Shown here: piece by piece, positions 1,892 through 14,220 of the stretch
Layout: the number at the start of each line of letters is the position of its first letter
Position numbering within the stretch: position 1 is the first letter of the stretch
DNA from: an uncultured Methanosarcinales archaeon
Lineage (GTDB): Archaea; Nanobdellota; Nanobdellia; Woesearchaeales; CAYMBN01
Reading direction: 5' to 3'
DNA: 20,000 nt
NCBI GenBank assembly: GCA_964388715.1
Contig: CAYMBN010000007.1
Span: 46,347 to 66,346 of the forward strand
Position numbers and translations under genes: made by a program
Notes under the pieces: generated by a model
The model's input: the letters and a program-made list of their open reading frames with translations, nothing else
What the model was told of the DNA's origin: nothing
Database searches by the model: none

Positions 1892-2038
1892 ATGATAGTA
1901 AAAATTGAAACCATAAAAAAGGGCTGTCCTGTTTGTAACAACACAGTAAAAGGAAATCAACAAATTAAGTATTACTGCAAGAATTGTAATATATTATTCT
2001 CACAAATCAATAATGAAATCATCCAAAAAAGAGGATAA
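1892..2038 (+). CDS. 48-aa zinc-ribbon microprotein (CPVC...YYCKNC)
   Basis: Manual translation gives MIVKIETIKKGCPVCNNTVKGNQQIKYYCKNCNILFSQINNEIIQKRG*. It has two CxxC pairs 13 residues apart, fills the gap between ribL and the HTH gene, and overlaps the latter's start. Confidence 0.7.
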   Translation: MIVKIETIKKGCPVCNNTVKGNQQIKYYCKNCNILFSQINNEIIQKRG

Positions 2039-2681
2039 AAAAGAGGCATCACTTGAAAAAGTGATGAAGGATCGCATTAATTTCCTAGTAGAAGAAACAA
2101 TGCAAAAATTCTTAGGAGTTACAATTAGCGAACTTAACAAAGACCTTTCTGACAAAATATCAAGAAACCCTCTATTAGATTATGAAATAAACTCATCATT
2201 ATCTTTCAAAGTAGCAAAAAAAATGTTCAAAAAACAATTCCTATCAAAACTAATCAAAGCCCATTATGGAAATATTTCACTTGTTGCAAAAATTACTGGA
2301 CTAAACAGACGTTCAATTCATAGGGCAGTAAAAGAACTTGGAATTAAGATACACAAATTAAGAAAAGAAATGTTAACTCCAAAATACTTCAAAAAGGAAA
2401 CAGTAGATAGTATACTAAGACATACTCTTGACAATTATAAAACAATTTTACATCCAACAAAACTACAAAAAATGTATGAAAATGTAGAAACAGTAACAGA
2501 AGATATCATTACACACTTACCAGAACTTCAAATGACATGGAAACAAGCTGAAAAAGAGTTTGAAAAAGAATATCTAAAAAAAGTTCTAAAAAACAACAAC
2601 TTCAATCTAACAAAAACAGCAAAGAAAATCAAGTTAAGATATGAAACCTTGCTCAGAAAAATGAAGAAATTAGAGATATGA
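2013..2681 (+). CDS. DNA-binding protein with two Fis-type (HTH_8-like) helix-turn-helix modules
   Basis: Two internal repeats, FKVAKKMFKKQFLSKLIKAHYGNISLVAKITGLNRRSIHRAVKELGI and WKQAEKEFEKEYLKKVLKNNNFNLTKTAKKIKLRYETLLRKMKKLEI. Each resembles the C-terminal DNA-binding domain of NtrC-family proteins. There is no AAA+ or receiver domain. Confidence 0.8.
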   Translation: MKSSKKEDKKEASLEKVMKDRINFLVEETMQKFLGVTISELNKDLSDKISRNPLLDYEINSSLSFKVAKKMFKKQFLSKLIKAHYGNISLVAKITGLNRRSIHRAVKELGIKIHKLRKEMLTPKYFKKETVDSILRHTLDNYKTILHPTKLQKMYENVETVTEDIITHLPELQMTWKQAEKEFEKEYLKKVLKNNNFNLTKTAKKIKLRYETLLRKMKKLEI

Positions 2682-2770
2682 CATTTTTGTCCCACACATA
2701 GATATAACCATACAATAGTATTTATATTCTTAGACGTCTTATATATAGTAAGGTGATGTAATAGTCACAC
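2677..2770 (+). promoter_or_regulatory. Promoter flanked by two putative palindromic operators (copy 1)
   Basis: TATGACA-TTTT-TGTCCCA at 2677-2694, TTTATATT at 2721, GTCTT at 2736 and GGTGATG-TAAT-AGTCACA at 2752-2769. The layout is the same as at 9896-9989. Confidence 0.7.
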
Positions 2771-2809
2771 TTATAAACAAACACAAAGAGGTCAAAAAAA
2801 CACAACAAA

Positions 2810-2941
2810 ATGGTATGGTTTGATGATATAGGAAGAGTGCAACCAAATGTACCTGGATGTAGCGGGTATTCATCTAAAAGAGCACACGTAGCTACAGGCG
2901 GAGCTAGTGGATACGATAGTCATTTAAGACAAAAAAGATAA
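2810..2941 (+). CDS. 43-aa Gly/Ser-rich peptide of unknown function
   Basis: MVWFDDIGRVQPNVPGCSGYSSKRAHVATGGASGYDSHLRQKR*. GC content is higher than in the flanking intergenic DNA, and the stop lies 1 nt before the next ATG (2943). Confidence 0.6.
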   Translation: MVWFDDIGRVQPNVPGCSGYSSKRAHVATGGASGYDSHLRQKR

Positions 2942-2942
2942 A

Positions 2943-3737
2943 ATGTCATACTGTGGTAGTTGTGGATATAGTAATGGTTGTTCAAGTTCTGCTTCTTACT
3001 CTTCAATTGATAGCATGGTAAGATATTCTCCACAATATTCTATTGATGATAGTGTAAGTTATAACATGGTAGAAGCTGCTATCCCAGAGTCACCTATTTT
3101 AACCTTAACAGACATTCTACCTAACTCAATGATTTACAATAAAACCAAAGAAAATTATAGACAGCTTTACCTTAATAATCAAACAACAAGAATGTATTAT
3201 ACACAAACAAACAATTTCCTGGATTCATCAAGACCAATAACACCATTCATAGGAAAAATCAGTAAAATTGCACATTATATTAAACAAGCATTCAAACTAA
3301 CTACAGGAAAAGCATTTCCTAAAGATATTATTATTAGATTAGTTGATGATAAAGAATTTAACCAACCAAAACAAGTTATAGGCTTTGCAATAAACAAAAA
3401 ACCTTTTGGAGTAAGTTCAATACTTATAAGAAAAGGCCACTTAGATGAAATAATGGTAACAATTGGTCACGAAATTGGCCACGTTCTTACAAAAAAACTT
3501 AATAATGAAAAAGATGAAGAAGCAAAAGCATTTGCATTCAGCATTGCCTGGCTAAAGACAATCAAAGAACATAACATTGCCAACCTATCAAAATCAATAA
3601 ACCTACAAAAACCTGCCCAAAACGGAATCCACAATATTGCACTAAACTTTGTAAGAAAACTAATCAACCAGGGCAAGACTGCATTTGAGATTTATTCAGA
3701 AATCATCAGTGGTATGAGAAGTTGCTCAGCTAATTAA
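2943..3737 (+). CDS. Cytoplasmic zinc metallopeptidase, ImmA/IrrE (M78)-like, with a Cys/Ser/Tyr-rich N-terminus
   Basis: TIGHEIGH (HExxH) is followed by DEEAKAFAF, giving a downstream Glu ligand in an E..A..F pattern. No signal peptide; the N-terminus is MSYCGSCGYSNGCSSSASYSS. Confidence 0.7.
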   Translation: MSYCGSCGYSNGCSSSASYSSIDSMVRYSPQYSIDDSVSYNMVEAAIPESPILTLTDILPNSMIYNKTKENYRQLYLNNQTTRMYYTQTNNFLDSSRPITPFIGKISKIAHYIKQAFKLTTGKAFPKDIIIRLVDDKEFNQPKQVIGFAINKKPFGVSSILIRKGHLDEIMVTIGHEIGHVLTKKLNNEKDEEAKAFAFSIAWLKTIKEHNIANLSKSINLQKPAQNGIHNIALNFVRKLINQGKTAFEIYSEIISGMRSCSAN

Positions 3738-3744
3738 CTTATTT

Positions 3745-3777
3745 CTTAAAAAAATAAAATAAAAAAAATTAAAAAAC
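3745..3777 (-). terminator. Oligo-T archaeal-type terminator for the 60-aa membrane protein gene
   Basis: Long A runs on the + strand (T runs on the - strand) immediately after stop 3778, between convergent genes. Confidence 0.4.
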
Positions 3778-3960
3778 TTATTTTGGATGGAACATCATCA
3801 ATAATCCTTTTAGTGCAAATATTGCTCCTACAAACATCCACCATTCAAGGAATTTAAAATGTGCATTAAGCATAATTAATATTCCTAAAACCAAGAACTT
3901 CATACCAAAACACATTGGGTTACCACAACACATACCAGCTTCTTTTTTCTTTGTTACCAT
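3778..3960 (-). CDS. Small two-TM membrane protein with an N-terminal CC...C motif
   Basis: GAGGTGA SD 6 nt upstream of the ATG, two hydrophobic segments, a TATA-like TTTAAATA about 40 nt upstream and T-tracts after the stop. Confidence 0.75.
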   Translation of the reverse strand: MVTKKKEAGMCCGNPMCFGMKFLVLGILIMLNAHFKFLEWWMFVGAIFALKGLLMMFHPK

Positions 3961-4067
3961 TAATAATCACCTCTTTAATAACCCATAAATAATTCACATA
4001 TTTAAACCTTTCTAACCACTAACATTTATATATAATAACAACATAAACATCTAAAAAGAGGGTTTTA

Positions 4068-7000
4068 ATGAAAAGATGGGTGTTTTTTCTAATATTTGTA
4101 TTGATTTTAGCAACTGTTAGTGCTACAGACTCTGTAGATGATGTAGTTAACACTATTACAAAACACGCAGAAGATTATGAAGCAGGAAAAATTTCACTTG
4201 CACAATTATCTGTTTACAAAAACAGTGTAAGATCAGATTTCTTTGAAGTTCTTGGTGTTAATGAAGAAGAATTTAGATGGGGTAATGAAACCCAACAACA
4301 AATAGTAGAAAAAGCAATACAAAGATTCTTTGGTGAACCATTTGAAAAAACCAATTGGGCATGGAATATTAATGAGGATCGTGAAGAAAAACTTGACGAA
4401 TCAGTACCTGCTTGGAGAAAGATAATCTTTGACGGCAAAAAAGTACAGATTACTTTTAATGCATGGCCAGAAATCTTATACAAAAAAGGTAAAAAACAAA
4501 TATTTTATTGGCCTGGTTTTGAAGTAAGATTTAAACAACAATTTGATTTTGATATTGATAAGTTAATATCTTCTATCAAAGAAACTGCAACAATATACAG
4601 TACACAAGGTCAAAAATCAGACCTTCTTATTGATCAAATAATTAGCACAGAAAACCTATTAAACAATTATCTCCAACAAAACAGATTTAATTGTATAAGT
4701 GCAATGGAAACAATCTTTGACAAAACCGAAAAAGCACAAAAAGAATCTCTTACAAAATGGAGAGTTTATCCTTATTCTGGAGAAGATTTTGATTTATGGC
4801 TTGAACTAAACACATGTAATTCATGTGAATGGCCTTGGATTAATTTTTGGATAGAAGTTGAATCACACAGAATGTTTAGAGGAAAACAAGATATGGACAT
4901 GGAAAAAATAGATAAGGAAGAACTTAAACACTTATCTATAGATGAATTATATGAAAAACAAGAAAAATTAATTGATGAATTAGTAAAAGAAGCAGAAAAA
5001 CTTGATAGAACAGGCCATAGCAGATTATTTGAAATATTACCAAGAAACAGACACATGATTGAAACAATTTCTTGGGCAATGGACGAAATTTTCTATGATA
5101 GAAAAGAACCAGAAGAAAGACAAATTATTTATGAAGAAAGAATTGAAAGATTAGAAGAAATGTTTTCTGAATATGGTAAGATTGAGAAAACCCCTGTTAC
5201 TAATAATCGATATGAAAAAAGACTTGTTGAAAATCTAGAAGAAAATCAACATAGTTGGTGCCAACATGTTAATGATATCCCATGTGGAGCTGATGAAGGC
5301 TGTGTTAATGGAGAATGTATTTATGCAAAAGGCGGTGAAGAAGATTGTAGAAATAACATGGATGATGATGGTGATAATGTAGTAGATTGTAATGATCCTG
5401 ATTGTTTTGAACACAAAGATTGTGGCAAAATGTGTGAACCTATTTGTAACAAGCCAGGCGGTTGCTGGCAAACTAATGATAAATTATGTAGACCTGTTTG
5501 TGAAGATTGCTGGGGATGTTATGAATCAGGTAAAAGTAATGAAGAATGTGATGCAATCTGCCAAGAAAAATGTTGGCCTTGCAGTGACAGTGATGAAATA
5601 AAACAAGCATGTAATGATTGTTGGAATTGTGAAGATGAAGCATATGGTGGTTGTAGAAAAGTATGTGAACCATGTAATGAATGTTCAAAAAAAGATGGCG
5701 AAGACTGTAGTGGAGAATGTAAAGAATGTAGTTTATGTAACTATGAAAATGGAGATTTCCAATGTAATGAAAATCAAGTATTCTCAGAAGAAGAAGCTTA
5801 TTGTATGTGTGAAGAAGGATTTTATGATTGTGATGAAAATTGGAACAATGGTTGTGAATCAGATTTCCATTGTGGTGTAAAAAGAGGAAAGTGCAAACCA
5901 GAATGTAATGTATATTATGATTGTATGGATGATTGTAAAGATGCTATTAAAGAATCATGCGACAAACATTGTGAAGGTGTCACAGAATTTGATAGCTGTC
6001 ATGATATATGCATGGATACAACAGAAGAAAAAACAGATTGCAGAGGAATTTGTTTTAAAGGCGCTTCACAACATTGCCAAGTATGTAAAAAAGCCAAACC
6101 AAGAAAACAAACACAACTTGAGAAATGTATTAAATTATGTTCAGGAGATGTTGAATGTAAAAAAGCATGTGAACTTGAAGACAGAAATCGTTGTTTAGTT
6201 GGTTGTGGTGATGATGAAGATTGTAAAGTAGCTTGTATTGGTAAAGAAGGAGTTTATTTCTGTGATGGTAAAAAACAAAGAGTTCCTTGTGAAGATGAAT
6301 ATACATACATTTGTAATGGTGTAAAATCCTATAAACCATGTAAATTAAATTACTATGTATGTAATGGTAAAAGACAAGATACACCTTGTGAAGGAATAAC
6401 TGAGTGTGAAATGTATCAGTATTATAATGAAGATGAAAAAAGTTGTAGATGTATTCCAGGCCATTATGATTGTGATGGTGATGGTGACTGTGATTATACA
6501 CAAAAATGTAAAGGAGACATGGAAGTTTGTGATGATAACAAAGACAACGATGGAGACTTTATGGTAGATTGTAATGATATGCTTGACTGTAGTGATGGTA
6601 CTGCTTGTGGCGACAATAAATATTGCAACAATGGAGAATGTATAGAAGGACAGTTTTGTATGCTTTACTGCGGAACATGTTCAGAACTAGACTATCAAGG
6701 CTGCCAATGTAAAGTAATTGAAAACTGTTGTGGTAATGGTATTTGCGAAGAAGATGAAACATGTCCAGAAGATTGTGAATTCCAATGTATGAGTGACTCT
6801 GATTGTGAACAACCAAAATGTGGTTATTCTGAATGTATTGAATCTGAATGTTTAACTGTTGTACAGGAATGTAAAATTTGTGAAGACGGTGAAACAAAAA
6901 CAGAACAATGTGGTAAAGACATCATTGTTACAGAAAAATGTGAAAAAAATCAATGGACTAAAACAGGAGAAGAATGTATAACATGTAGTGATGGAGAAGC

Positions 7001-9647
7001 AAAAGAAGCAATATGTTTAGATGGAAGCATGATCGCAGTTGAAATATGTAAAGATGGTCAGTGGATTGCACAAGAAATTGAATGTCCTATTGTAGAATGT
7101 ATTGATGGAGAAACACAAACAACTGATTGTCCTGATGATTCTGTAATAATAACAGCAGAATGTGTTGAAAATACATGGATCTTAACTGAAAATGAATGTG
7201 GCCAAGAATGCCATGAAGAAGAAATAATTGAAAAAACATGTAAAGATGAGCTGTCAATCATAGTTGCAACCTGTGTAGACAATCAATGGGTTGAAACCAA
7301 TAATAAATGTTTAGATGATTATGGTGTTGTATGTGAAGATGAAGAAACAAGACAAAAAGAATGTCCTGATGATTCTATCATTGAAGTTGAAAAATGTGAA
7401 AATAACGCATGGGTTCGTTTAGATACTCAATGTCCTGAAGTTGGAGTTGTATGTGAAGAAGGAGAAAAACAAGAAGAACAATGTCCAGACGGTTCTACTA
7501 TTCTTACTGCAACATGTTCTAATAATGAATGGCACTATACACTAGTTGCCTGTCCAATTGAAGAAGAAACAGAATGTAAACTTGTTTCAGACTGTGGCCA
7601 AGATGAAGTTTGTTCAAATGGTGAATGTGTATATATTGAACCTGTTGAAGAAGAGGAAGAAGAAATAATTCCTTTACCTCCAGGAATAGAAGAAGAGGAG
7701 GAAGAGGAAGAACCTGAACAAGAACAACAACCAGAACCAGAAATTGAGGAAGAAGAAGAGATTATTGAAGAACCTCAACCTGAAGTTGAGGAAAGTGAAC
7801 CAGAAGAACAAGAAGTAGAGGAAGAGGAAACTCAAGAGCAAGAACCAGAACCGCAAGAAGAAGAGGAGCCAGAACCTGTTGTTGAGGAAGAACCTGAACC
7901 AACTCCAGAGCCTGAACCAGAACAACAAAATACAGAACCTGAAATAACTGGTAATGCTATAACAGCTTACGTTGTTGCAACTGGCATGGCTACTGCTAAT
8001 AAAGAATGTCGTGATGATAATCATTGTGATCAAAATCAATTCTGTTGGAGAGAATCTACTTGGGGTCATGAAGACCATCAAGGTATTTGCGCACCAGAAG
8101 GATGTTCAAGTGATGAAGATTGTCCTGATCCTAAAACACAACATTGTTGGGATAATGGATGTCATTGTAATAGATATGATAAACATTTTGACTGTGATAA
8201 AGACTATTCTAATGGATGTGAATCAACTGATGTAACTTGTGGCGGAACAGTTGATGCATGCGCTGTTCAAGAATGTGACAAACCAAACCAATGGTGTAAT
8301 CCTGAAAGAGGAGATTGTGAATGTAAAGAAGGATTTTATGAATGTAATGGTGATTGGGAAGACGGTTGCGAAAGCACTTCTGAATGTGACGGTTGTAAAA
8401 GTAGTGATGAATGTGCCAAACCAAGATGTGCTGAACATGATAACATACTTTACGAATTCGCATGTGTAAAAAGCGAACCATGGGTTGAAGAAAGGGGAAT
8501 GTTCATGTTCACAGGAGGATGTGAAGAAAGTTCAACAGAAACATGGCCACATGTGCATTTTAACTTCTGGGGAGAACCATTTGACCAATTAAGACCAAAA
8601 TACGAACAAAAAAGACATCAAAATGAACAAGATTGGTGTGAAAGAGAATTTGAACTTTTCAAAAAACAAAGAAAAGAAATTGAAAAATCTATTAATGAAG
8701 AATTTATGAATTGGTTCTTTAATATTTATGTTAGAAAAGATTCTGAAAAATGGACAAGTCATATAGGAGGAATCTTTGATACTTATTGGATGATTGTTGA
8801 CAATACAAGAGAAGTGGTAAGAACATTACAATGTATGGGTGAAGATGAATGGCCAAAAGAATTTGAACCAATTAATATCGAATTTGAAAGTGACTTTGGA
8901 TATGTTAAACTATGGGAAGAAGAAAAACATATCAAAGAATTTGATAAAATTGATACAATACTTTCACCATACATGCAAATTTGGATCTTCCCTCCTAAAG
9001 ATTTATTTAGATTTGAAATAGAAAAAGCTTACAAATTAAAGAAATTCCCAGGACCACCTGATGAAGAAGGTCCAGGCCCAACTCCAGAAGAAATTGAAGA
9101 AATAAGAAACAACCCAGTAATAAGAGAAGAATTTAGAAAAATACTAGATGAATTTGATGGAAGCATTAAGGTATTGCTTCAAATAGAAGATAACGATGAA
9201 ATAATTTACAAAGCTTTAGCTACTCTTGATGATGAAGTAATCTTTGATTTAAAAGTAGGAGAAGACATAACTCTTACAGAAGATGAAACAGATATTACCA
9301 TGACAATTGACTTAGAATGGTTATATGAAATGGTTAGTACAAGTGAAAAAGACATGAGAGGAGAAGAACTTGAAAGCCCACCATGGGACAGAAAACCAAG
9401 AATGGGTGCATTCAAGCAAATGGCAGGTAACATTAAGATGGGCTCAAAATTTGTTGGTGGATTAACAACAGGCAAAGTCAAAGTCAAACCAATGGGAAAA
9501 GCATTCAAATTAATGGGTTTCTTTAGAGATATGGATGAATTAAGGCCAGAAGATGAAAGAGATAGAAGAGGGGAAGGTGGAGAAGAAGAAAGAGGAGGAA
9601 AAAGGGACGAGCAAGATAAAGGAGAAGAAAAGGAAAGAAAAAGATAG
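4068..9647 (+). CDS. Giant secreted Cys-rich multi-repeat surface protein (1859 aa)
   Basis: Signal peptide MKRWVFFLIFVLILATVSA with a GAGGG SD and TTTATATA upstream. It has DxDGDxxVDCxD Ca-binding-like motifs twice, many disulfide-type repeats, a Glu/Pro linker, an ITGNAI motif and globular N- and C-terminal regions. Confidence 0.9.
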   Translation: MKRWVFFLIFVLILATVSATDSVDDVVNTITKHAEDYEAGKISLAQLSVYKNSVRSDFFEVLGVNEEEFRWGNETQQQIVEKAIQRFFGEPFEKTNWAWNINEDREEKLDESVPAWRKIIFDGKKVQITFNAWPEILYKKGKKQIFYWPGFEVRFKQQFDFDIDKLISSIKETATIYSTQGQKSDLLIDQIISTENLLNNYLQQNRFNCISAMETIFDKTEKAQKESLTKWRVYPYSGEDFDLWLELNTCNSCEWPWINFWIEVESHRMFRGKQDMDMEKIDKEELKHLSIDELYEKQEKLIDELVKEAEKLDRTGHSRLFEILPRNRHMIETISWAMDEIFYDRKEPEERQIIYEERIERLEEMFSEYGKIEKTPVTNNRYEKRLVENLEENQHSWCQHVNDIPCGADEGCVNGECIYAKGGEEDCRNNMDDDGDNVVDCNDPDCFEHKDCGKMCEPICNKPGGCWQTNDKLCRPVCEDCWGCYESGKSNEECDAICQEKCWPCSDSDEIKQACNDCWNCEDEAYGGCRKVCEPCNECSKKDGEDCSGECKECSLCNYENGDFQCNENQVFSEEEAYCMCEEGFYDCDENWNNGCESDFHCGVKRGKCKPECNVYYDCMDDCKDAIKESCDKHCEGVTEFDSCHDICMDTTEEKTDCRGICFKGASQHCQVCKKAKPRKQTQLEKCIKLCSGDVECKKACELEDRNRCLVGCGDDEDCKVACIGKEGVYFCDGKKQRVPCEDEYTYICNGVKSYKPCKLNYYVCNGKRQDTPCEGITECEMYQYYNEDEKSCRCIPGHYDCDGDGDCDYTQKCKGDMEVCDDNKDNDGDFMVDCNDMLDCSDGTACGDNKYCNNGECIEGQFCMLYCGTCSELDYQGCQCKVIENCCGNGICEEDETCPEDCEFQCMSDSDCEQPKCGYSECIESECLTVVQECKICEDGETKTEQCGKDIIVTEKCEKNQWTKTGEECITCSDGEAKEAICLDGSMIAVEICKDGQWIAQEIECPIVECIDGETQTTDCPDDSVIITAECVENTWILTENECGQECHEEEIIEKTCKDELSIIVATCVDNQWVETNNKCLDDYGVVCEDEETRQKECPDDSIIEVEKCENNAWVRLDTQCPEVGVVCEEGEKQEEQCPDGSTILTATCSNNEWHYTLVACPIEEETECKLVSDCGQDEVCSNGECVYIEPVEEEEEEIIPLPPGIEEEEEEEEPEQEQQPEPEIEEEEEIIEEPQPEVEESEPEEQEVEEEETQEQEPEPQEEEEPEPVVEEEPEPTPEPEPEQQNTEPEITGNAITAYVVATGMATANKECRDDNHCDQNQFCWRESTWGHEDHQGICAPEGCSSDEDCPDPKTQHCWDNGCHCNRYDKHFDCDKDYSNGCESTDVTCGGTVDACAVQECDKPNQWCNPERGDCECKEGFYECNGDWEDGCESTSECDGCKSSDECAKPRCAEHDNILYEFACVKSEPWVEERGMFMFTGGCEESSTETWPHVHFNFWGEPFDQLRPKYEQKRHQNEQDWCEREFELFKKQRKEIEKSINEEFMNWFFNIYVRKDSEKWTSHIGGIFDTYWMIVDNTREVVRTLQCMGEDEWPKEFEPINIEFESDFGYVKLWEEEKHIKEFDKIDTILSPYMQIWIFPPKDLFRFEIEKAYKLKKFPGPPDEEGPGPTPEEIEEIRNNPVIREEFRKILDEFDGSIKVLLQIEDNDEIIYKALATLDDEVIFDLKVGEDITLTEDETDITMTIDLEWLYEMVSTSEKDMRGEELESPPWDRKPRMGAFKQMAGNIKMGSKFVGGLTTGKVKVKPMGKAFKLMGFFRDMDELRPEDERDRRGEGGEEERGGKRDEQDKGEEKERKR
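6879..7556 (+). repeat. Six tandem ~35-40 aa four-Cys repeats within the giant protein
   Basis: Consensus C-x-(D/E)(G/E)E-x5-C-(P)D(G/D)S-x-I-x4-C-x2-N-x-W-x6-C, from CEDGETKTEQC to HYTLVACP. Confidence 0.85.
7638..7943 (+). repeat. Glu/Pro/Gln low-complexity linker (coding)
   Basis: EEEEEEEEPEQEQQPEPEIEEEEE...PEPTPEPEPE, encoded by GAA/GAG/CCA-rich DNA. Confidence 0.85.
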
Positions 9648-9675
9648 GTTTATATATTACTTCTTGATTTTTTAA

Positions 9676-9900
9676 GTGAAAATGCATGTAAAAGAACAAA
9701 AACCTATGGTAATTAAAGCAATCGAAGATACCCTTGATAATGTTGAAAATTTAATTGATCCACTAGCTGAAGGATATATAGCTCTAATAAAAAAATTTGA
9801 TGAATTAGCCTATAAAAGTTGTAAAATTCAACCATACCTTGCAAATAATGAATTAATTCTTTTTGCTACTTGTGCTTGTTCTCACTATTTAACCTTATGA
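9676..9900 (+). CDS. Hypothetical small protein (start GTG 9676 or ATG 9682)
   Basis: The ORF fills the gap, and TTTATAT at 9649 is at leaderless-type distance. No recognisable domain. Confidence 0.5.
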   Translation: MKMHVKEQKPMVIKAIEDTLDNVENLIDPLAEGYIALIKKFDELAYKSCKIQPYLANNELILFATCACSHYLTL

Positions 9901-9989
9901 CTTTTTTGTCGCACTTTTAACCACTTCCTCCCAGATTTCTTTAAATAAAATAAAGTCTTTATAGACCATAGTAGATTTAAATGTCACAA
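9896..9989 (+). promoter_or_regulatory. Promoter flanked by two putative palindromic operators (copy 2)
   Basis: TATGACT-TTTT-TGTCGCA at 9896-9913, TTTAAATA at 9940, GTCTT at 9955 and GTAGATT-TAAA-TGTCACA at 9971-9988. Confidence 0.7.
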
Positions 9990-9999
9990 GTTGATAAAA

Positions 10000-10221
10000 A
10001 TGGGCACACAAGAACAAATAGCAAATGATGTAATGTATAGAAGTATGAATTATATAAAAGAACCACATCCTTCATATTCAATGCAAGGCCCACAAGCAAT
10101 TTACAAGGAACAAAAAGGATATGATCCAGTTAAAAAAGCAACAGATAAAACTAACATGGCTGCCCAATACATAGCTGAACAGTTTTTCAAGTCACCTGGG
10201 GCAAAATATTTAAAACATTAA
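10000..10221 (+). CDS. Hypothetical 73-aa protein (MGTQEQIAND...)
   Basis: ATG at 10000 is preferred over TTG 9991. Codon usage is like the neighbours, and it ends 15 nt before the next gene. Confidence 0.65.
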   Translation: MGTQEQIANDVMYRSMNYIKEPHPSYSMQGPQAIYKEQKGYDPVKKATDKTNMAAQYIAEQFFKSPGAKYLKH

Positions 10222-10236
10222 CTAATTCTTTACATT

Positions 10237-11079
10237 ATGATACAAGAACTTAAACAAATATTCCAATCATTAACAAAATCACTTGAAATTCTTTATTTAA
10301 TAGAAGATGTAAAACCCTGTGCAAGAATCATGGTTCATGAAGATAAACTCGAGCAAATTAAACAATTTCTTCAAACTAAAGGATTATACTTTACTTTATC
10401 TGATTTTAAAGTTATCAAAGAAGAAAATGCAAGATATTCTAACAAAGGTAAAAGAGTTCCAGTAGAATCAGAAGAAAAAGGATATTATTTTATGTACATT
10501 TCAAAAGAACAAAGCAAAACAGAACAAGCAAAACAACTTGAAGCACAAAAAAAACACAAAGAACTAGGTATTTTACTTGGTTATCCAGAATGTTGCTCAG
10601 AATTCTTCCAAAAACATAGTCAAAACCAAGAAAAAACAACCAATGATTACATTTTACCAGCTTACAACAACAGTCAAGGTTATAAATTTCCATTCCACAA
10701 TAACATAATAGCAAGATACTTTGATTATACTCTTCTTAATCACTTCCCTTGCAATTTCAACTGTAACAAATCAATTGAACTTGCAAAAAAACATCTTGAA
10801 ATAATTCAAAAACATAATCCACAACTTGTAAATGAAATACAAAAAATTCTAAAATCAGTTGCACTTTTCACAGAATACTCAGGAAAATACCTTTTCTTAA
10901 ACCCAGAATTCACAAAAAACGTAATTCTATTTAAAAATATTTTAGCAACAGCAAAAGGTAGAGTCTTTTATGATTTAGAAGAACAAAAAGAGTTTGAGAT
11001 CATTGGAGAACACCATATTAAGATTGGCTTTGACAAGAATCTAACATGTGAAGATTTATGTGTTTTTGTGTTTGAGTAA
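10237..11079 (+). CDS. DUF483-like archaeal protein
   Basis: LGILLGYPECCSEFF motif plus HFPCNFNC; recognised from memory of the family, not by a search. Confidence 0.65.
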   Translation: MIQELKQIFQSLTKSLEILYLIEDVKPCARIMVHEDKLEQIKQFLQTKGLYFTLSDFKVIKEENARYSNKGKRVPVESEEKGYYFMYISKEQSKTEQAKQLEAQKKHKELGILLGYPECCSEFFQKHSQNQEKTTNDYILPAYNNSQGYKFPFHNNIIARYFDYTLLNHFPCNFNCNKSIELAKKHLEIIQKHNPQLVNEIQKILKSVALFTEYSGKYLFLNPEFTKNVILFKNILATAKGRVFYDLEEQKEFEIIGEHHIKIGFDKNLTCEDLCVFVFE

Positions 11080-11085
11080 AATTGT

Positions 11086-12759
11086 TTAATCCTTCTTATC
11101 TCTATAACTTGTATGTAACAATTCCTTTGACATTTTTCCCAAAGGTTTTCCCAAGAATTCATCATATAATTGTATTATTGCAGGATTCTTATGAGACCTT
11201 CTTATTTTCATTATTTTATCTTGCTTATATATTGCTTGCCTTCTCTTTTTAATAATTTCATTAGTTGTTGGCCTTGGTTGACCTCCTCCTCCAATACAAC
11301 CTCCAGGACAAGCCATTATCTCAATAAAATGATATTTACTTTTACCTTGTTTTAACTCTTCCAAAACATAGCGTGCATTCCTTAAACCATTTACAACAGC
11401 AACATTCAACTTAAGACCATCAATTTTAATAGTTGCTTCTTTTATACCAGTACTATTACGCACTTCATTAAAATCAATCTTATCATATTCTTTACCAGTT
11501 ATCACATAATAAGCTGTTCTTAATGCAGCCTCCATCACCCCACCTGTTGTACCAAATATTGCAGCACCACCAGAACTCATACCAAGTGGTTGATCAAATT
11601 CCTCCTCATCACATTTAGACAAATCAATCCCTTGCTGTTTCATTAACCTAGATGTTTCCCTTGTTGTTAAAACATAGTCAACATCACCTTTTAACTCCTT
11701 TCTATTTGCTTCATACTTCTTAGCAGTACAAGGCATAATACTCACGACAACAATATTTTTAGGATCAATACTTTGCTTTTCAGCATAATAAGTTTTAACA
11801 ATCGCACCAAACATCTGATGAGGTGACTTACAACTAGAAAGATGTTTCAACAATTCAGGATAAAACTTTTCAATAAAATTAATCCAACCAGGAGAACATG
11901 AAGTTATCATTGGAAGAATATCTTTTTTCTTAATCCTTTCAACTAATTCATTAGCCTCTTCTATTATTGTTAAGTCAGCACCAAAATCAGTATCAAACAC
12001 CATATCAAAACCAAGTTTTCTTAGAGCAGTAACCATTTTTTTTGTAACCAAACTTCCTGGCTCCATCTCAAACTCTTCACCAATTGATGCTCTTACAGCA
12101 GGCGCTGTCTGCACAACAACATGTTTTGTTTTATCCTTAAGCACTTTTTTAACATCCTCAATATTATTAGTTTCACTTATTGCATTAGTTGGACACACTA
12201 AACTACACTGACCACAACTAACACAAACAGTATCAGATATTTTATGATCAAAGTAAGTACCAACTTCTAATGCATTACCTCGTCCTTGAAAACAAATTGC
12301 ATTAACACCTTGCACATCCCTACACTTTGCAACACACTTACCACATAAAATACATTTTGAAGGATCTCTTGTAATTGCATATGCAGAATCATCAACCTTT
12401 TTAGGTGGCTCAGGTTGAAACCTTAACTCTTTAAGATCATGCATATCCCTAAGTTGATGTAGTCGATTAAATTCACACTCTCTTTGATAATTTGAAGCCA
12501 ATAATTCAAGATTCAATCTTCGAGCTTTCATAACCTTGTCAGTGTTTGTTTTTATTATCATTCTTTCTGCAACTTTATTATCACAAGAAGTCATCAATTT
12601 TCCATTAACTTCAACAAGGCAAACTCTACACCTTCCTTTTACCTCAAGATCAGGATGAAAACATAATGTAGGTATCTCAATTCCAATCCTCCTAACAGCT
12701 TCCCAAATACTTATTCCTTTCTCAACCTTAACCTTTTTTCCATCAATTATTACTTGCAT
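11086..12759 (-). CDS. hydA: [FeFe]-hydrogenase catalytic subunit (group A, trimeric type)
   Basis: H-cluster motifs ITSCSPGW, MPCTAKKYEA and EIMACPGGCIGGGGQP. N-terminal [2Fe-2S] (LC...CRVC...SC), two [4Fe-4S] (CILCGKCVAKC; CVSCGQCSLVCP) and a fused small-subunit tail (SHKNP...LLHTSY). Confidence 0.97.
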   Translation of the reverse strand: MQVIIDGKKVKVEKGISIWEAVRRIGIEIPTLCFHPDLEVKGRCRVCLVEVNGKLMTSCDNKVAERMIIKTNTDKVMKARRLNLELLASNYQRECEFNRLHQLRDMHDLKELRFQPEPPKKVDDSAYAITRDPSKCILCGKCVAKCRDVQGVNAICFQGRGNALEVGTYFDHKISDTVCVSCGQCSLVCPTNAISETNNIEDVKKVLKDKTKHVVVQTAPAVRASIGEEFEMEPGSLVTKKMVTALRKLGFDMVFDTDFGADLTIIEEANELVERIKKKDILPMITSCSPGWINFIEKFYPELLKHLSSCKSPHQMFGAIVKTYYAEKQSIDPKNIVVVSIMPCTAKKYEANRKELKGDVDYVLTTRETSRLMKQQGIDLSKCDEEEFDQPLGMSSGGAAIFGTTGGVMEAALRTAYYVITGKEYDKIDFNEVRNSTGIKEATIKIDGLKLNVAVVNGLRNARYVLEELKQGKSKYHFIEIMACPGGCIGGGGQPRPTTNEIIKKRRQAIYKQDKIMKIRRSHKNPAIIQLYDEFLGKPLGKMSKELLHTSYRDKKD

Positions 12760-13826
12760 TTTTTCTCAAACTCTTTTCTAAAATACTTAAGCGCTGTTTT
12801 AAGATGTGTTGTTGAACATTGACCCAATGCACAAAATGAAGTTTCTGGAATATGTTCAGCAAGCTCTTCAATCAAATCAAGCTCATTCTTAGTACATTTC
12901 TTTTTTTGAAACAATTGTAATAACCTATAATTACCTTCTCTACAAGGAGTACAATTTCCACAATTTTCTTCAACAAAAAATTTAGTAATATTACTACACA
13001 AATCAGGCACAGACCTTTCCATTCCTACAATAATCAAAGTACCAGAACCAAACATTGCCCCTTTTCCACTTACTTTCTCAACAGACAATTCCAATGATTC
13101 GTCATAAGGCAAACAACCACCAGCTGCTCCAAAAAACACAGCTTTTGGATCAATTGGTTTAGCCTCCAACATCAATTTGTTTAATTGAATCCCTCTTTCT
13201 GCTTCATACACTCCAGGATTTTCAACATCACCTGAAATAGAAAATAACATTAACTGATTATTCCAATCATCTCTAAAAACTAAAGCAACTCTAGCAAGTG
13301 TTTCAACATTATTTATACAAGTTGGCCTTCCAAATAAACCAATCTGAGCAGGGTAAGGAGGTTTCCTTCTTGTCTCACCCCTTCTTCCCTCAATACTATT
13401 CATTATAGCTGTTTCCTCTCCACACAAATAAGAACCAGCACCAACAACAATTTTAATATCAACACCAGACTGAGCTTTCTTCAAAACTTTTTCAAGTATT
13501 TTCTTAAGATAAACATACTCTCTTCTAAGATAAATATAACATTCTTTACATTGTAAAGCATAACATGCAATATCAATTCCCTCTACTAAAAGTTCAGGAT
13601 TATTCTCGACAATAAATTTGTCCTTAAATGTACCTGGTTCACCCTCATCAAAATTAACAATAAGATATTCAGCTTTTCCAGTTAATTGCCATTTTTTACC
13701 TGTTGGAAAATTAGCACCACCTAATCCAATAAGACCTGAATCAACAACTTTCTGAATAACTTGTTCTGGTTTAAACTTTCTTACTTTTTTCCAACTCTCA
13801 TAATTATTTTTACTTAAAATCTTCAT
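12750..13826 (-). CDS. hydB: NuoF/HydB-like FMN/NADH-binding diaphorase subunit (short, 358 aa)
   Basis: GLGGANFPTGKKW, NFDEGEPGTFKD, GAGSYLCGEETA, PTCINNVET, an SLBB region, and a CGNCTPCREG...SFCALG [4Fe-4S] site. Confidence 0.93.
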   Translation of the reverse strand: MKILSKNNYESWKKVRKFKPEQVIQKVVDSGLIGLGGANFPTGKKWQLTGKAEYLIVNFDEGEPGTFKDKFIVENNPELLVEGIDIACYALQCKECYIYLRREYVYLKKILEKVLKKAQSGVDIKIVVGAGSYLCGEETAIMNSIEGRRGETRRKPPYPAQIGLFGRPTCINNVETLARVALVFRDDWNNQLMLFSISGDVENPGVYEAERGIQLNKLMLEAKPIDPKAVFFGAAGGCLPYDESLELSVEKVSGKGAMFGSGTLIIVGMERSVPDLCSNITKFFVEENCGNCTPCREGNYRLLQLFQKKKCTKNELDLIEELAEHIPETSFCALGQCSTTHLKTALKYFRKEFEKKCK

Positions 13827-14220
13827 TTTTCAATATTTTTTTTATTTTTTCTTCATTTAATTCAGTAAAAACCTTATCATTTATCATCATTGCAGGTGCT
13901 TTATCACAACAACCAATACAAGAAGCAATATCAACTGAAAACTTAGCATTACTTTCACCAGGTTTTAAACCAGTCAACTTTTCAATTATGTCCAAAATAT
14001 TGTCAGAACCTTTCATATGACAAACAGGACTTTCACAAACCTTAATATGAAACTTTCCTCTTTTTTCTAAATCAAAAAAAGAATAAAAAGAAGCTGCTTC
14101 ATACAATTCTCCTACTGAAACTTTAAATTTGTCAGCAACTTTTTTTAAAGATTTCTCTGACAAAAAACTTTCTTTATCTTGTATCTTTCTAAGTTCATTA
14201 AGTATTAATTTATTAACCAT
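13810..14220 (-). CDS. hydC: NuoE/HydC-like [2Fe-2S] thioredoxin-fold subunit
   Basis: ASFYSFF, VCESPVCHMKGS and SCIGCCDKAPAMMIN. Confidence 0.93.
   Translation of the reverse strand: MVNKLILNELRKIQDKESFLSEKSLKKVADKFKVSVGELYEAASFYSFFDLEKRGKFHIKVCESPVCHMKGSDNILDIIEKLTGLKPGESNAKFSVDIASCIGCCDKAPAMMINDKVFTELNEEKIKKILKNEDFK

Follow-up and report, generated by a model that had tools for sequence, protein, structure and literature searches.

Which protein, if any, reads two look-alike promoters in the genome of an uncultured archaeon of the order Woesearchaeales? The question is raised by a 20,000-nucleotide stretch of that genome, called the window below (contig CAYMBN010000007.1 of assembly GCA_964388715.1; C7:46347-66346 of genome G000 in our numbering, a genome of 1.30 Mb with 30.8% G+C and 95.75% completeness). 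The first of the two promoters overlaps the stop codon of a gene for a 222-aa protein with two Fis-type helix-turn-helix (HTH) domains, and a first-pass annotation of the window, made from the DNA alone, had proposed this double-HTH protein as the cognate regulator of both. The spacing of the sites, their fate at orthologous promoters and their co-occurrence with the gene support this interpretation. Judging by comparative genomics, the double-HTH protein is probably the sequence-specific regulator of a small conserved regulon, with a role that depends on the position of its site. Gene regulation in DPANN archaea is almost unexplored and the organisms are uncultivated; here, a testable pair of regulator and operator would come with a defined regulon.

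The elements in question, all on the plus strand of the window and listed by position, are the following. Scores refer to a position weight matrix (PWM) described below, and "weak BRE" to the B recognition element next to the TATA box.

2013-2681, plus strand: proposed regulator gene, 222 aa, two Fis-type HTH domains (Pfam HTH_8)
2679-2694, plus strand: site 1, copy 1, TGACATTTTTGTCCCA; it opens with the stop codon of the HTH gene; PWM score 26.5, the best in the genome
2721-2728, plus strand: TATA box of promoter 1, TTTATATT, 42 nt from the start of site 1; weak BRE
2736-2741, plus strand: GTCTTA element, roughly from -15 to -10 relative to the predicted transcription start
2754-2769, plus strand: site 2, copy 1, TGATGTAATAGTCACA, 75 nt after site 1; PWM scores 15.9 and 13.4
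9898-9913, plus strand: site 1, copy 2, TGACTTTTTTGTCGCA; PWM score 22.7, fourth in the genome
9940-9947, plus strand: TATA box of promoter 2, TTTAAATA, 42 nt from site 1; weak BRE
9973-9988, plus strand: site 2, copy 2, AGATTTAAATGTCACA, of which the right half alone is well kept; PWM score 6.6 at offset +75

The two copies are visible as the 19-mers TATGACATTTTTGTCCCAC (2677-2695) and TATGACTTTTTTGTCGCAC (9896-9914), which are identical at 17 of 19 positions. All strings and offsets on which the first-pass annotation relied are indeed present, that is, the 19-mers, the TATA boxes at 2721 and 9940, GTCTT at 2736 and 9955, and GTCACA at 2764 and 9983. By itself, the 17/19 pair is within chance: such pairs form 40 clusters in the window, and 6-10 were obtained in four Markov-like shuffles. 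From the motif to +100, the copies share 36 of 81 bases (44%), and the flanks share 8 of 40 bases before and 15 of 40 after this region. Because the DNA between the anchors is so diverged and the flanks are unrelated, a recent duplication is unlikely, as had already been argued from the window.

The motif stands out at the scale of the genome. The pattern TGACWTTTTTGTCNCA has five exact matches in the 1.30-Mb genome and the reversed pattern none; at one or two mismatches, counts are the same as for the control. The five matches are the two in the window (2679 and 9898), one at C1:170518 and a divergent pair at C8:44872 (-) and C8:44896 (+). At all five, TTTAWAT begins exactly 42 nt past the T of TGAC. 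A PWM derived from 28 sites, drawn from other genomes only, placed the same five sites at the top of the window genome with scores of 21.2-26.5; the next match scores 17.7 and lacks a TATA box, and the number of matches above 12 is at shuffle level.

Across genomes, the operator reads TATGAY-N5-TGTCNCA. It is 16-18 bp long and has a core of GAC-N6-GTC with unequal flanks, and it points in one orientation towards the gene. The 7-4-7 palindrome described earlier was an inexact rendering of this core. Position 9 is a T in 32 of 32 sites, even though it was left free in the search pattern, and T and A are favoured at -2 and -1. The spacer is A/T-rich in either sense; TGACAAAATTGTC is an A-rich example from the relatives. 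TTTAWAW starts exactly at +42 in 28 of 39 strong sites, at +43 in one and at +44 in two. Many of these 39 loci were retrieved with a pattern that permitted distances of 42-44; among the first 13 sites, which were found without a TATA condition, the TATA box is at +42 in 11 and at +44 in 2. The fixed distance between motif and TATA box thus extends from the two window copies to the whole genome (5/5) and to the relatives. A spacing that is constant to the base invites structural study.

We then compared the distribution of the motif with that of the gene. In a set of 60 genomes of the same order, one per GTDB family, a homologue of the HTH protein was found in 18, and the motif with a TATA box occurred at 32 sites in 18 genomes (control, 2 sites); 16 genomes had both. 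In 300 genomes of the order, the refined motif with TATA box gave 100 sites in 63 genomes, compared with 1 for the reversed-pattern control, and a profile of the HTH protein matched in 87 genomes. The motif was present in 58 of the 87 genomes with the gene, but only in 5 of the 213 without it (table 58/29/5/208, odds ratio 83; 56/28/5/208 without the three unpublished genomes G111, G182 and G205). The p-value of this association is overstated because related genomes are not independent. Four GTDB families (f14, f52, f90 and f116) are mixed with respect to the gene; no motif was found in their gene-lacking members, and most of their gene-bearing members have it. The gene is also patchily distributed. 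On a tree of the nucleotidyltransferase-like protein described below, explaining the HTH state takes 6 changes, of which at least 3 fall on well-supported branches. The regulon is conserved across dozens of GTDB families. Confinement of the motif to genomes with a double-HTH gene had been named in advance as a test, and since the motif is almost confined to them, this gene very probably encodes the switch.

Loss of the motif from orthologous promoters in genomes that miss the gene amounts to a ready-made natural comparative experiment. We examined the 220 nt upstream of a gene for a 612-aa nucleotidyltransferase-like (NTase-like) protein. Among 13 HTH-bearing genomes, the best PWM score in this region reached 14.7 or more in 12, whereas it was at most 6.7 in all 17 genomes without the HTH gene. 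Conservation at orthologous promoters, which the first-pass annotation had required of a true operator, is therefore seen where the regulator is present (12/13) and not where it is missing (0/17). A second target, a gene for a protein with an HExxH motif, has an orthologue in three genomes without the HTH gene, and in all three no PWM match of at least 7 was found within about 2 kb.

Sites also cluster at the gene of the proposed regulator. At 10 of 17 HTH loci, a site scoring at least 13.5 lies within about 250 nt, where about 0.14 would be expected from the background rate in the window genome. In G000, G007 and G044, which belong to three families, the HTH reading frame ends on the TGA of site 1. 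In G012, G022, G035, G007 and G016, a site is found at -15 to -20 from the ATG of the HTH gene, just past a TATA box, and in G002 and G044 sites are placed farther upstream of the gene. Among 58 genomes, the motif with TATA box is found no farther than 100 nt from the HTH gene in 6, no farther than 1 kb in 12 and no farther than 2.5 kb in 19, where chance would give about 0.5 (5, 11 and 17 of 56 without the unpublished genomes). Fifteen of the 19 sites within 2.5 kb are downstream of the gene and on the same strand.

The 222-aa protein matches Pfam HTH_8 (PF02954) over two stretches (E 7.5e-13, 48.4 bits against a cut-off of 22), and its gene is the sole HTH_8 gene in the window genome. Profile matches in the PDB comprised the DNA-binding domain of NtrC4 (E 9.6e-9) and NtrX (E 1.1e-7); Fis reached only E 0.085-0.5. 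The two recognition helices are unlike each other and each is conserved (RRSIHRA(I/V)K and LRYETLxRKxKKLG), which is compatible with an asymmetric site. The AlphaFold2 (AF2) model is all-helical with a pLDDT of 79.6 and contains a local fold match to the NtrC4 DNA-binding domain (4fth; probability 1.00, TM 0.79 over 60 residues). A Foldseek search of the PDB at E up to 1e-3 returned no analogue of the whole regulator, the match to the NtrC4 domain being local only. Prediction of a two-copy complex reached a best score of 0.28 against a mark of 0.42 and speaks neither for nor against self-association. Full-length homologues fall into more than 100 clusters that are unnamed or automatically labelled; those named by organism come from Woesearchaeota or Nanoarchaeia.

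HTH_8 is alone among the significant Pfam matches of the protein, which include no AAA+ sigma-54-interaction domain, and its NCBIfam matches span just the C-terminal DNA-binding ends of NtrX, NorR and PspF. The 95.75%-complete genome gave no match to Sigma54_DBD (PF04552), and a control search for it was positive in four bacteria. A search of the window genome with PF00158 yielded generic AAA+ proteins; as the control matched 14 of 14 genomes, it is uninformative. Since neither an AAA+ domain nor sigma-54 was found, we consider that the protein has the DNA-binding module of an enhancer-binding protein (EBP) and yet is not such a protein. A module known mainly from bacterial sigma-54 activators thus appears to be at work on a eukaryote-like TBP/TFB promoter. 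Next to it, a 48-aa zinc-ribbon open reading frame (ORF; CPVC...CKNC; 1892-2038, plus strand) shares 26 nt with the beginning of the regulator gene and may be co-transcribed with it.

In order to place the sites relative to transcription starts, TATA boxes were located upstream of 879 crude ORFs. TTTAWAW peaks 30 nt before the start codon (82 ORFs at -30, 39 at -31, 33 at -32), from which we infer that transcripts are mostly leaderless and start about 30 nt past the beginning of the TATA box. The starts in the window would therefore be near 2751 and 9970, in agreement with the earlier prediction, and an ATG at +73 of the C1 promoter, with a predicted start near C1:170590, also fits this distance. 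Relative to the predicted start, site 1 spans about -72 to -57 and is separated from the TATA box by 26 bp; site 2 spans about +3 to +18, and in copy 1 about +4 to +19. The (G)TCTTA element recurs at 9955-9960, and TCTT/CTTA is found at +58/+59 in 7 of 28 motif promoters. The genome consensus for the BRE, just before the TATA box, is (A/C)(A/G)AAA. By this measure, the five motif promoters are at percentiles 10-33 of 341 genome promoters, all below the median, with promoter 1 at the 33rd and promoter 2 at the 10th percentile.

The second site, said earlier to be exactly 75 nt from the first, fared less uniformly. In 32 promoters from 17 genomes, the best further PWM match between +58 and +110 peaks at +75, or at +73 on the other strand, so that the offset does recur in other genomes. 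It scores above 6 in just 11 of the 32 promoters, compared with 2 of 32 for an upstream control window, both of them partners of divergent pairs, and 0 of 32 for a far-downstream window. Site 2 is present in the promoters of the HExxH operon and missing from all promoters of the NTase-like gene.

These positions suggest how the double-HTH protein might act. One chain would occupy one site, with one HTH per half-site. From site 1, which is outside the pre-initiation complex and before weak BREs, the protein would most likely help to recruit TBP/TFB and in this way activate. Bound to site 2, or between the TATA box and its own ATG, it would block RNA polymerase, resulting in repression or autorepression. 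Looping between sites 1 and 2, about 7.1 turns apart, would be possible. The base-exact phasing with the TATA box, the occurrence of site 1 as the sole site at 12 NTase-gene promoters, and the weak BREs all suggest an effect of site 1 on the initiation complex, beyond that of a looping anchor. A more elaborate version, which we regard as a long shot, would have an EBP-type DNA-binding module duplicated into one chain and now serving as a stand-alone archaeal factor, which as a monomer on an oriented, asymmetric operator activates from about -65 and at higher occupancy shuts the same promoters by bridging to the start-site operator, a self-limiting loop of activation and repression. If true, this would be the first Fis-type regulon and the first phased two-operator looping system described in Archaea.

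Several observations weigh against the double-HTH protein as regulator, or against parts of this scheme. The exact pattern is missing from 29 of the 87 HTH-bearing genomes, although this pattern is strict and G044, for example, has sites by PWM; in G180 (f90), the gene is present and no motif was found. Conversely, 5 of the 213 gene-lacking genomes have a match. One of these, G289, is 71% complete, and the rest of its family has the gene; each of the other four has one site, and G251 and G300 are from one family. At the promoters themselves, G041 has the HTH gene but no motif upstream of the NTase-like gene, and G026 lacks the motif at the HExxH gene despite having the HTH gene. Relatives are not independent, and of the three independent pairs on well-supported branches of the NTase tree, two went the same way and one showed no difference, which is not significant. 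Autoregulation is not universal, with sites upstream of the HTH gene at 7 of 17 loci, and in the window genome itself the 250 nt upstream of the HTH gene contain no PWM site of at least 8. Two thirds of the promoters have a weak site 2 or none. BREs were weaker with the HTH gene than without it (-0.08 vs 1.51), but the one-sided p of 0.04 is marginal and the choice of TATA boxes noisy. Finally, the transcription starts are predictions: the sequencing runs found to hold this DNA are 8 DNA runs from 2 marine/seawater studies, with no RNA run among them.

An alternative is a regulator that only represses. The same protein would bind the same sites, with site 1 as an auxiliary anchor that loops 75 bp onto the operator at the start site. 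A centre-to-centre distance of 75 bp, or about 7.1 turns, puts both sites on the same face of the helix, site 2 is weaker than site 1 as in auxiliary-operator systems, and the regulator's own promoters have their sites in repressing positions. We nevertheless think this improbable. At 12 promoters of the NTase-like gene, site 1 is found at the exact +42 and there is no site 2, so that site 1 must work alone; the single-base constancy of the spacing and the weak BREs also point to contact with the initiation complex. Somewhat more doubtful still is a true operator that is bound by another factor co-inherited with the double-HTH gene, be it an HTH_8-like paralogue or a protein of the regulon. 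Co-occurrence and neighbourhood do not identify the binder, and weak HTH_8-like paralogues are indeed encoded in motif-driven operons of G012 (a 420-aa frame) and G021 (274 aa). However, such paralogues are sporadic, the window genome has its single HTH_8 gene, and sites on the promoter and on the stop codon of the double-HTH gene, seen in many families, are expected of an autoregulated cognate factor.

The remaining explanations dispense with a regulon. A transcription terminator or RNA signal of the upstream gene would explain why, three of the five window-genome sites have a motif TGA that doubles as the stop codon of the ORF before it, with a run of 5-6 T behind. It is very unlikely in view of the many relatives' sites with A-rich spacers, of divergent pairs that have no upstream gene in the right orientation, and of a fixed distance that is kept to the downstream TATA box; the GAC/GTC stem would have only 3 bp. 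Even less credit is due to a duplicated promoter cassette or a small MITE-like mobile element. Two copies 7.2 kb apart within one window are what such an element might leave behind, but the 44% identity between the anchors and the unrelated flanks do not fit it, neither terminal repeats nor near-identical copies were seen, and orthologous genes in different GTDB families have the motif in front of them.

With the double-HTH protein as the preferred regulator, the system can be compared with known ones. According to the first-pass annotation, half-sites resembling TGTCnCA are typical of several bacterial Fis-HTH EBPs. The DNA-binding HTH_8 module is common to our protein, the bacterial NtrC family (NtrC4, PDB 4fth/3e7l; NtrX, PDB 5m7n) and Fis. 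NtrC-family proteins and Fis have one HTH per subunit of a dimer, Fis being a homodimer of about 98 aa, whereas the protein described here has two HTHs in a chain of 222 aa, which sets it apart from Fis. Unlike the NtrC family, it has no receiver or AAA+ sigma-54 domain, and its promoters are of the TBP/TFB type. MarA, SoxS and Rob (AraC/XylS) are bacterial monomers with two HTHs that bind an asymmetric site, whose orientation and distance from the core promoter matter. The likeness consists in one chain, two unlike HTHs and an oriented asymmetric site, to which our protein would also bind as a monomer. However, these proteins belong to another HTH family and serve bacterial sigma-70 promoters, and the regulator has no HTH_18/HTH_AraC match in Pfam.

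Among archaeal systems, position-dependent regulators offer the nearest parallel in mode of action. Archaeal activators in general bind upstream of the BRE (PMC5512572), TFB-RF1 (PF1088) and EarA do so at promoters with a weak BRE (PMC5937170, PMC5512572), and for TrmBL1 a site upstream of BRE/TATA leads to activation and one downstream of the TATA box to repression (PMC4706686). The operator described here is likewise upstream of BRE/TATA at some promoters and past the TATA box or on the start at others, and the sign of regulation would follow the position. TrmBL1/Tgr of Thermococcales, with the TGM motif TATCAC-N5-GTGATA, resembles our system in its short inverted-repeat operator with position-dependent effect and in the positions of its sites. 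It differs in that TrmBL1/Tgr are winged-helix dimers of the TrmB family, whereas here a single chain has two Fis-type HTHs and the site is asymmetric and oriented; the regulator has no Pfam match to a TrmB domain at E up to 0.1. Here, moreover, both positions can be combined in one promoter at a fixed 75 bp, and site 1 is 26 bp from the TATA box and not beside the BRE. TFB-RF1 and EarA are alike in the use of weak-BRE promoters, but their sites lie next to the BRE on its upstream side, in contrast to the fixed 26-bp gap found here, and the protein families are unrelated. By family, sequence comparison makes our protein a Fis-type HTH protein, neither an EBP nor Fis, which by the placement of its sites would work like the position-dependent regulators of Thermococcales. 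In the full-text library searched, which covered regulation in DPANN/Woesearchaeota, archaeal Fis-family HTH proteins and the positions from which archaeal regulators activate or repress, we found no description of this protein family, motif or regulon.

The 33 promoters that were examined precede the NTase-like gene (12), members of the HExxH family (6), a protein of 70-84 aa (2) and, for the rest, lineage-specific ORFs. In the window, the ORFs next to the two promoters are:

2810-2941, plus strand: 43-aa ORF, the first frame past promoter 1; no family match, and uncertain whether real
2943-3737, plus strand: 264-aa target protein, putative gluzincin-type zinc peptidase with a C-terminal HExxH...EEAKAF domain
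9676-9900, plus strand: 74-aa ORF, ending in the TGA with which site 1, copy 2, begins; no family match
10000-10221, plus strand: 73-aa ORF, the first gene past promoter 2; no family match
10237-11079, plus strand: 280-aa protein, the second gene past promoter 2; Pfam DUF483 at E 1.6e-4 and 22.1 bits, below the cut-off of 25

In G012, the place of the 43-aa ORF is taken by a 66-aa Cys/Ser-rich ORF. NCBIfam gave no match for any of six uncharacterised target proteins.

The 264-aa HExxH protein has a disordered N-terminus rich in Cys, Ser and Tyr, followed by a domain modelled by AF2 with pLDDT above 90 (residues 90-264). Across 30 homologues, GHExGH and EEAKA do not vary, nor do some other residues. 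For residues 78-264, VIA-align gave Z scores of 10.4 (2h1j), 9.8 (5zum) and 7.1 (thermolysin); the first two are M3 and DPP III peptidases, and the list consists mostly of zincin-type zinc peptidases and related metal hydrolases. The HExxH motif and a downstream Glu ligand, on a modelled zincin fold, agree with the definition of a gluzincin. Pfam M48 scored 20.0 against a cut-off of 20.3, Foldseek retrieved nothing from the PDB at E up to 1e-3, and the protein atlas placed the protein in unnamed Woesearchaeota clusters, with one DA1-like lead at 0.89. The orthologue is preceded by the motif in 6 genomes, and the regulon thus takes in a family of more than 500 members of uncharacterised putative zinc peptidases. 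The HExxH protein was also considered as the binder of the motif and rejected, as 9 genomes with the motif gave no match to it and 3 without the motif have it. By analogy with ImmA/IrrE (M78), which are paired with HTH repressors, the zinc peptidase encoded downstream might inactivate the regulator. The likeness is limited to gene adjacency and the HExxH motif, and the HExxH protein has no Pfam match to Peptidase_M78 at E up to 0.1.

The 612-aa NTase-like gene is behind the C8 site of the window genome (G000:C8:45013-46851; L021:4013-5851). Its product has a Lys-rich N-terminus and nucleotidyltransferase-like domains and was found in 59 of the 60 genomes, with 56 strong matches at 46-75% identity; a paralogue of about 270 aa is universal. 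The protein bears only a weak likeness to NTP_transf_2, MntA and ANT(9), and comparison with PDB sequences produced just chance-level choline-kinase rows. The regulon thus holds an NTase-like protein that is nearly universal in the order and has no known function. In G058, which has no regulator, the HExxH gene and the gene for the 270-aa NTase paralogue stand back to back, 104 nt apart (L104, G058:C8:13500-15600). Their junction is the position of the HTH gene in several regulator-bearing genomes, and no motif is left there; the locus looks like a clean deletion of the regulator.

Further features of the neighbourhood were noted. Between the two motif promoters, 4068-9647 (plus strand) encodes a secreted, extremely Cys-rich protein of 1859 aa with a long acidic stretch rich in Glu and Pro and no Pfam match. 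A three-subunit [FeFe]-hydrogenase-like cluster occupies 11086-14220 (minus strand) and consists of a Fe_hyd_lg_C/SSU fusion, a Nuo51-like subunit and a 2Fe-2S thioredoxin-like subunit. Past this cluster follow CutA1, NifU, a NifS-like gene and a small ArsR-type HTH gene. Lastly, at least five of the weak PWM matches in the window genome represent a repeat, about 60 nt long or longer, that opens with TGAYAYYATTGTCTTACGAA and contains GGCACAGGCACTATGCA (C13:11817, C3:37475, C2:52959, C8:40474 and C2:54807); it may be a small repeat element or a family of non-coding RNA.

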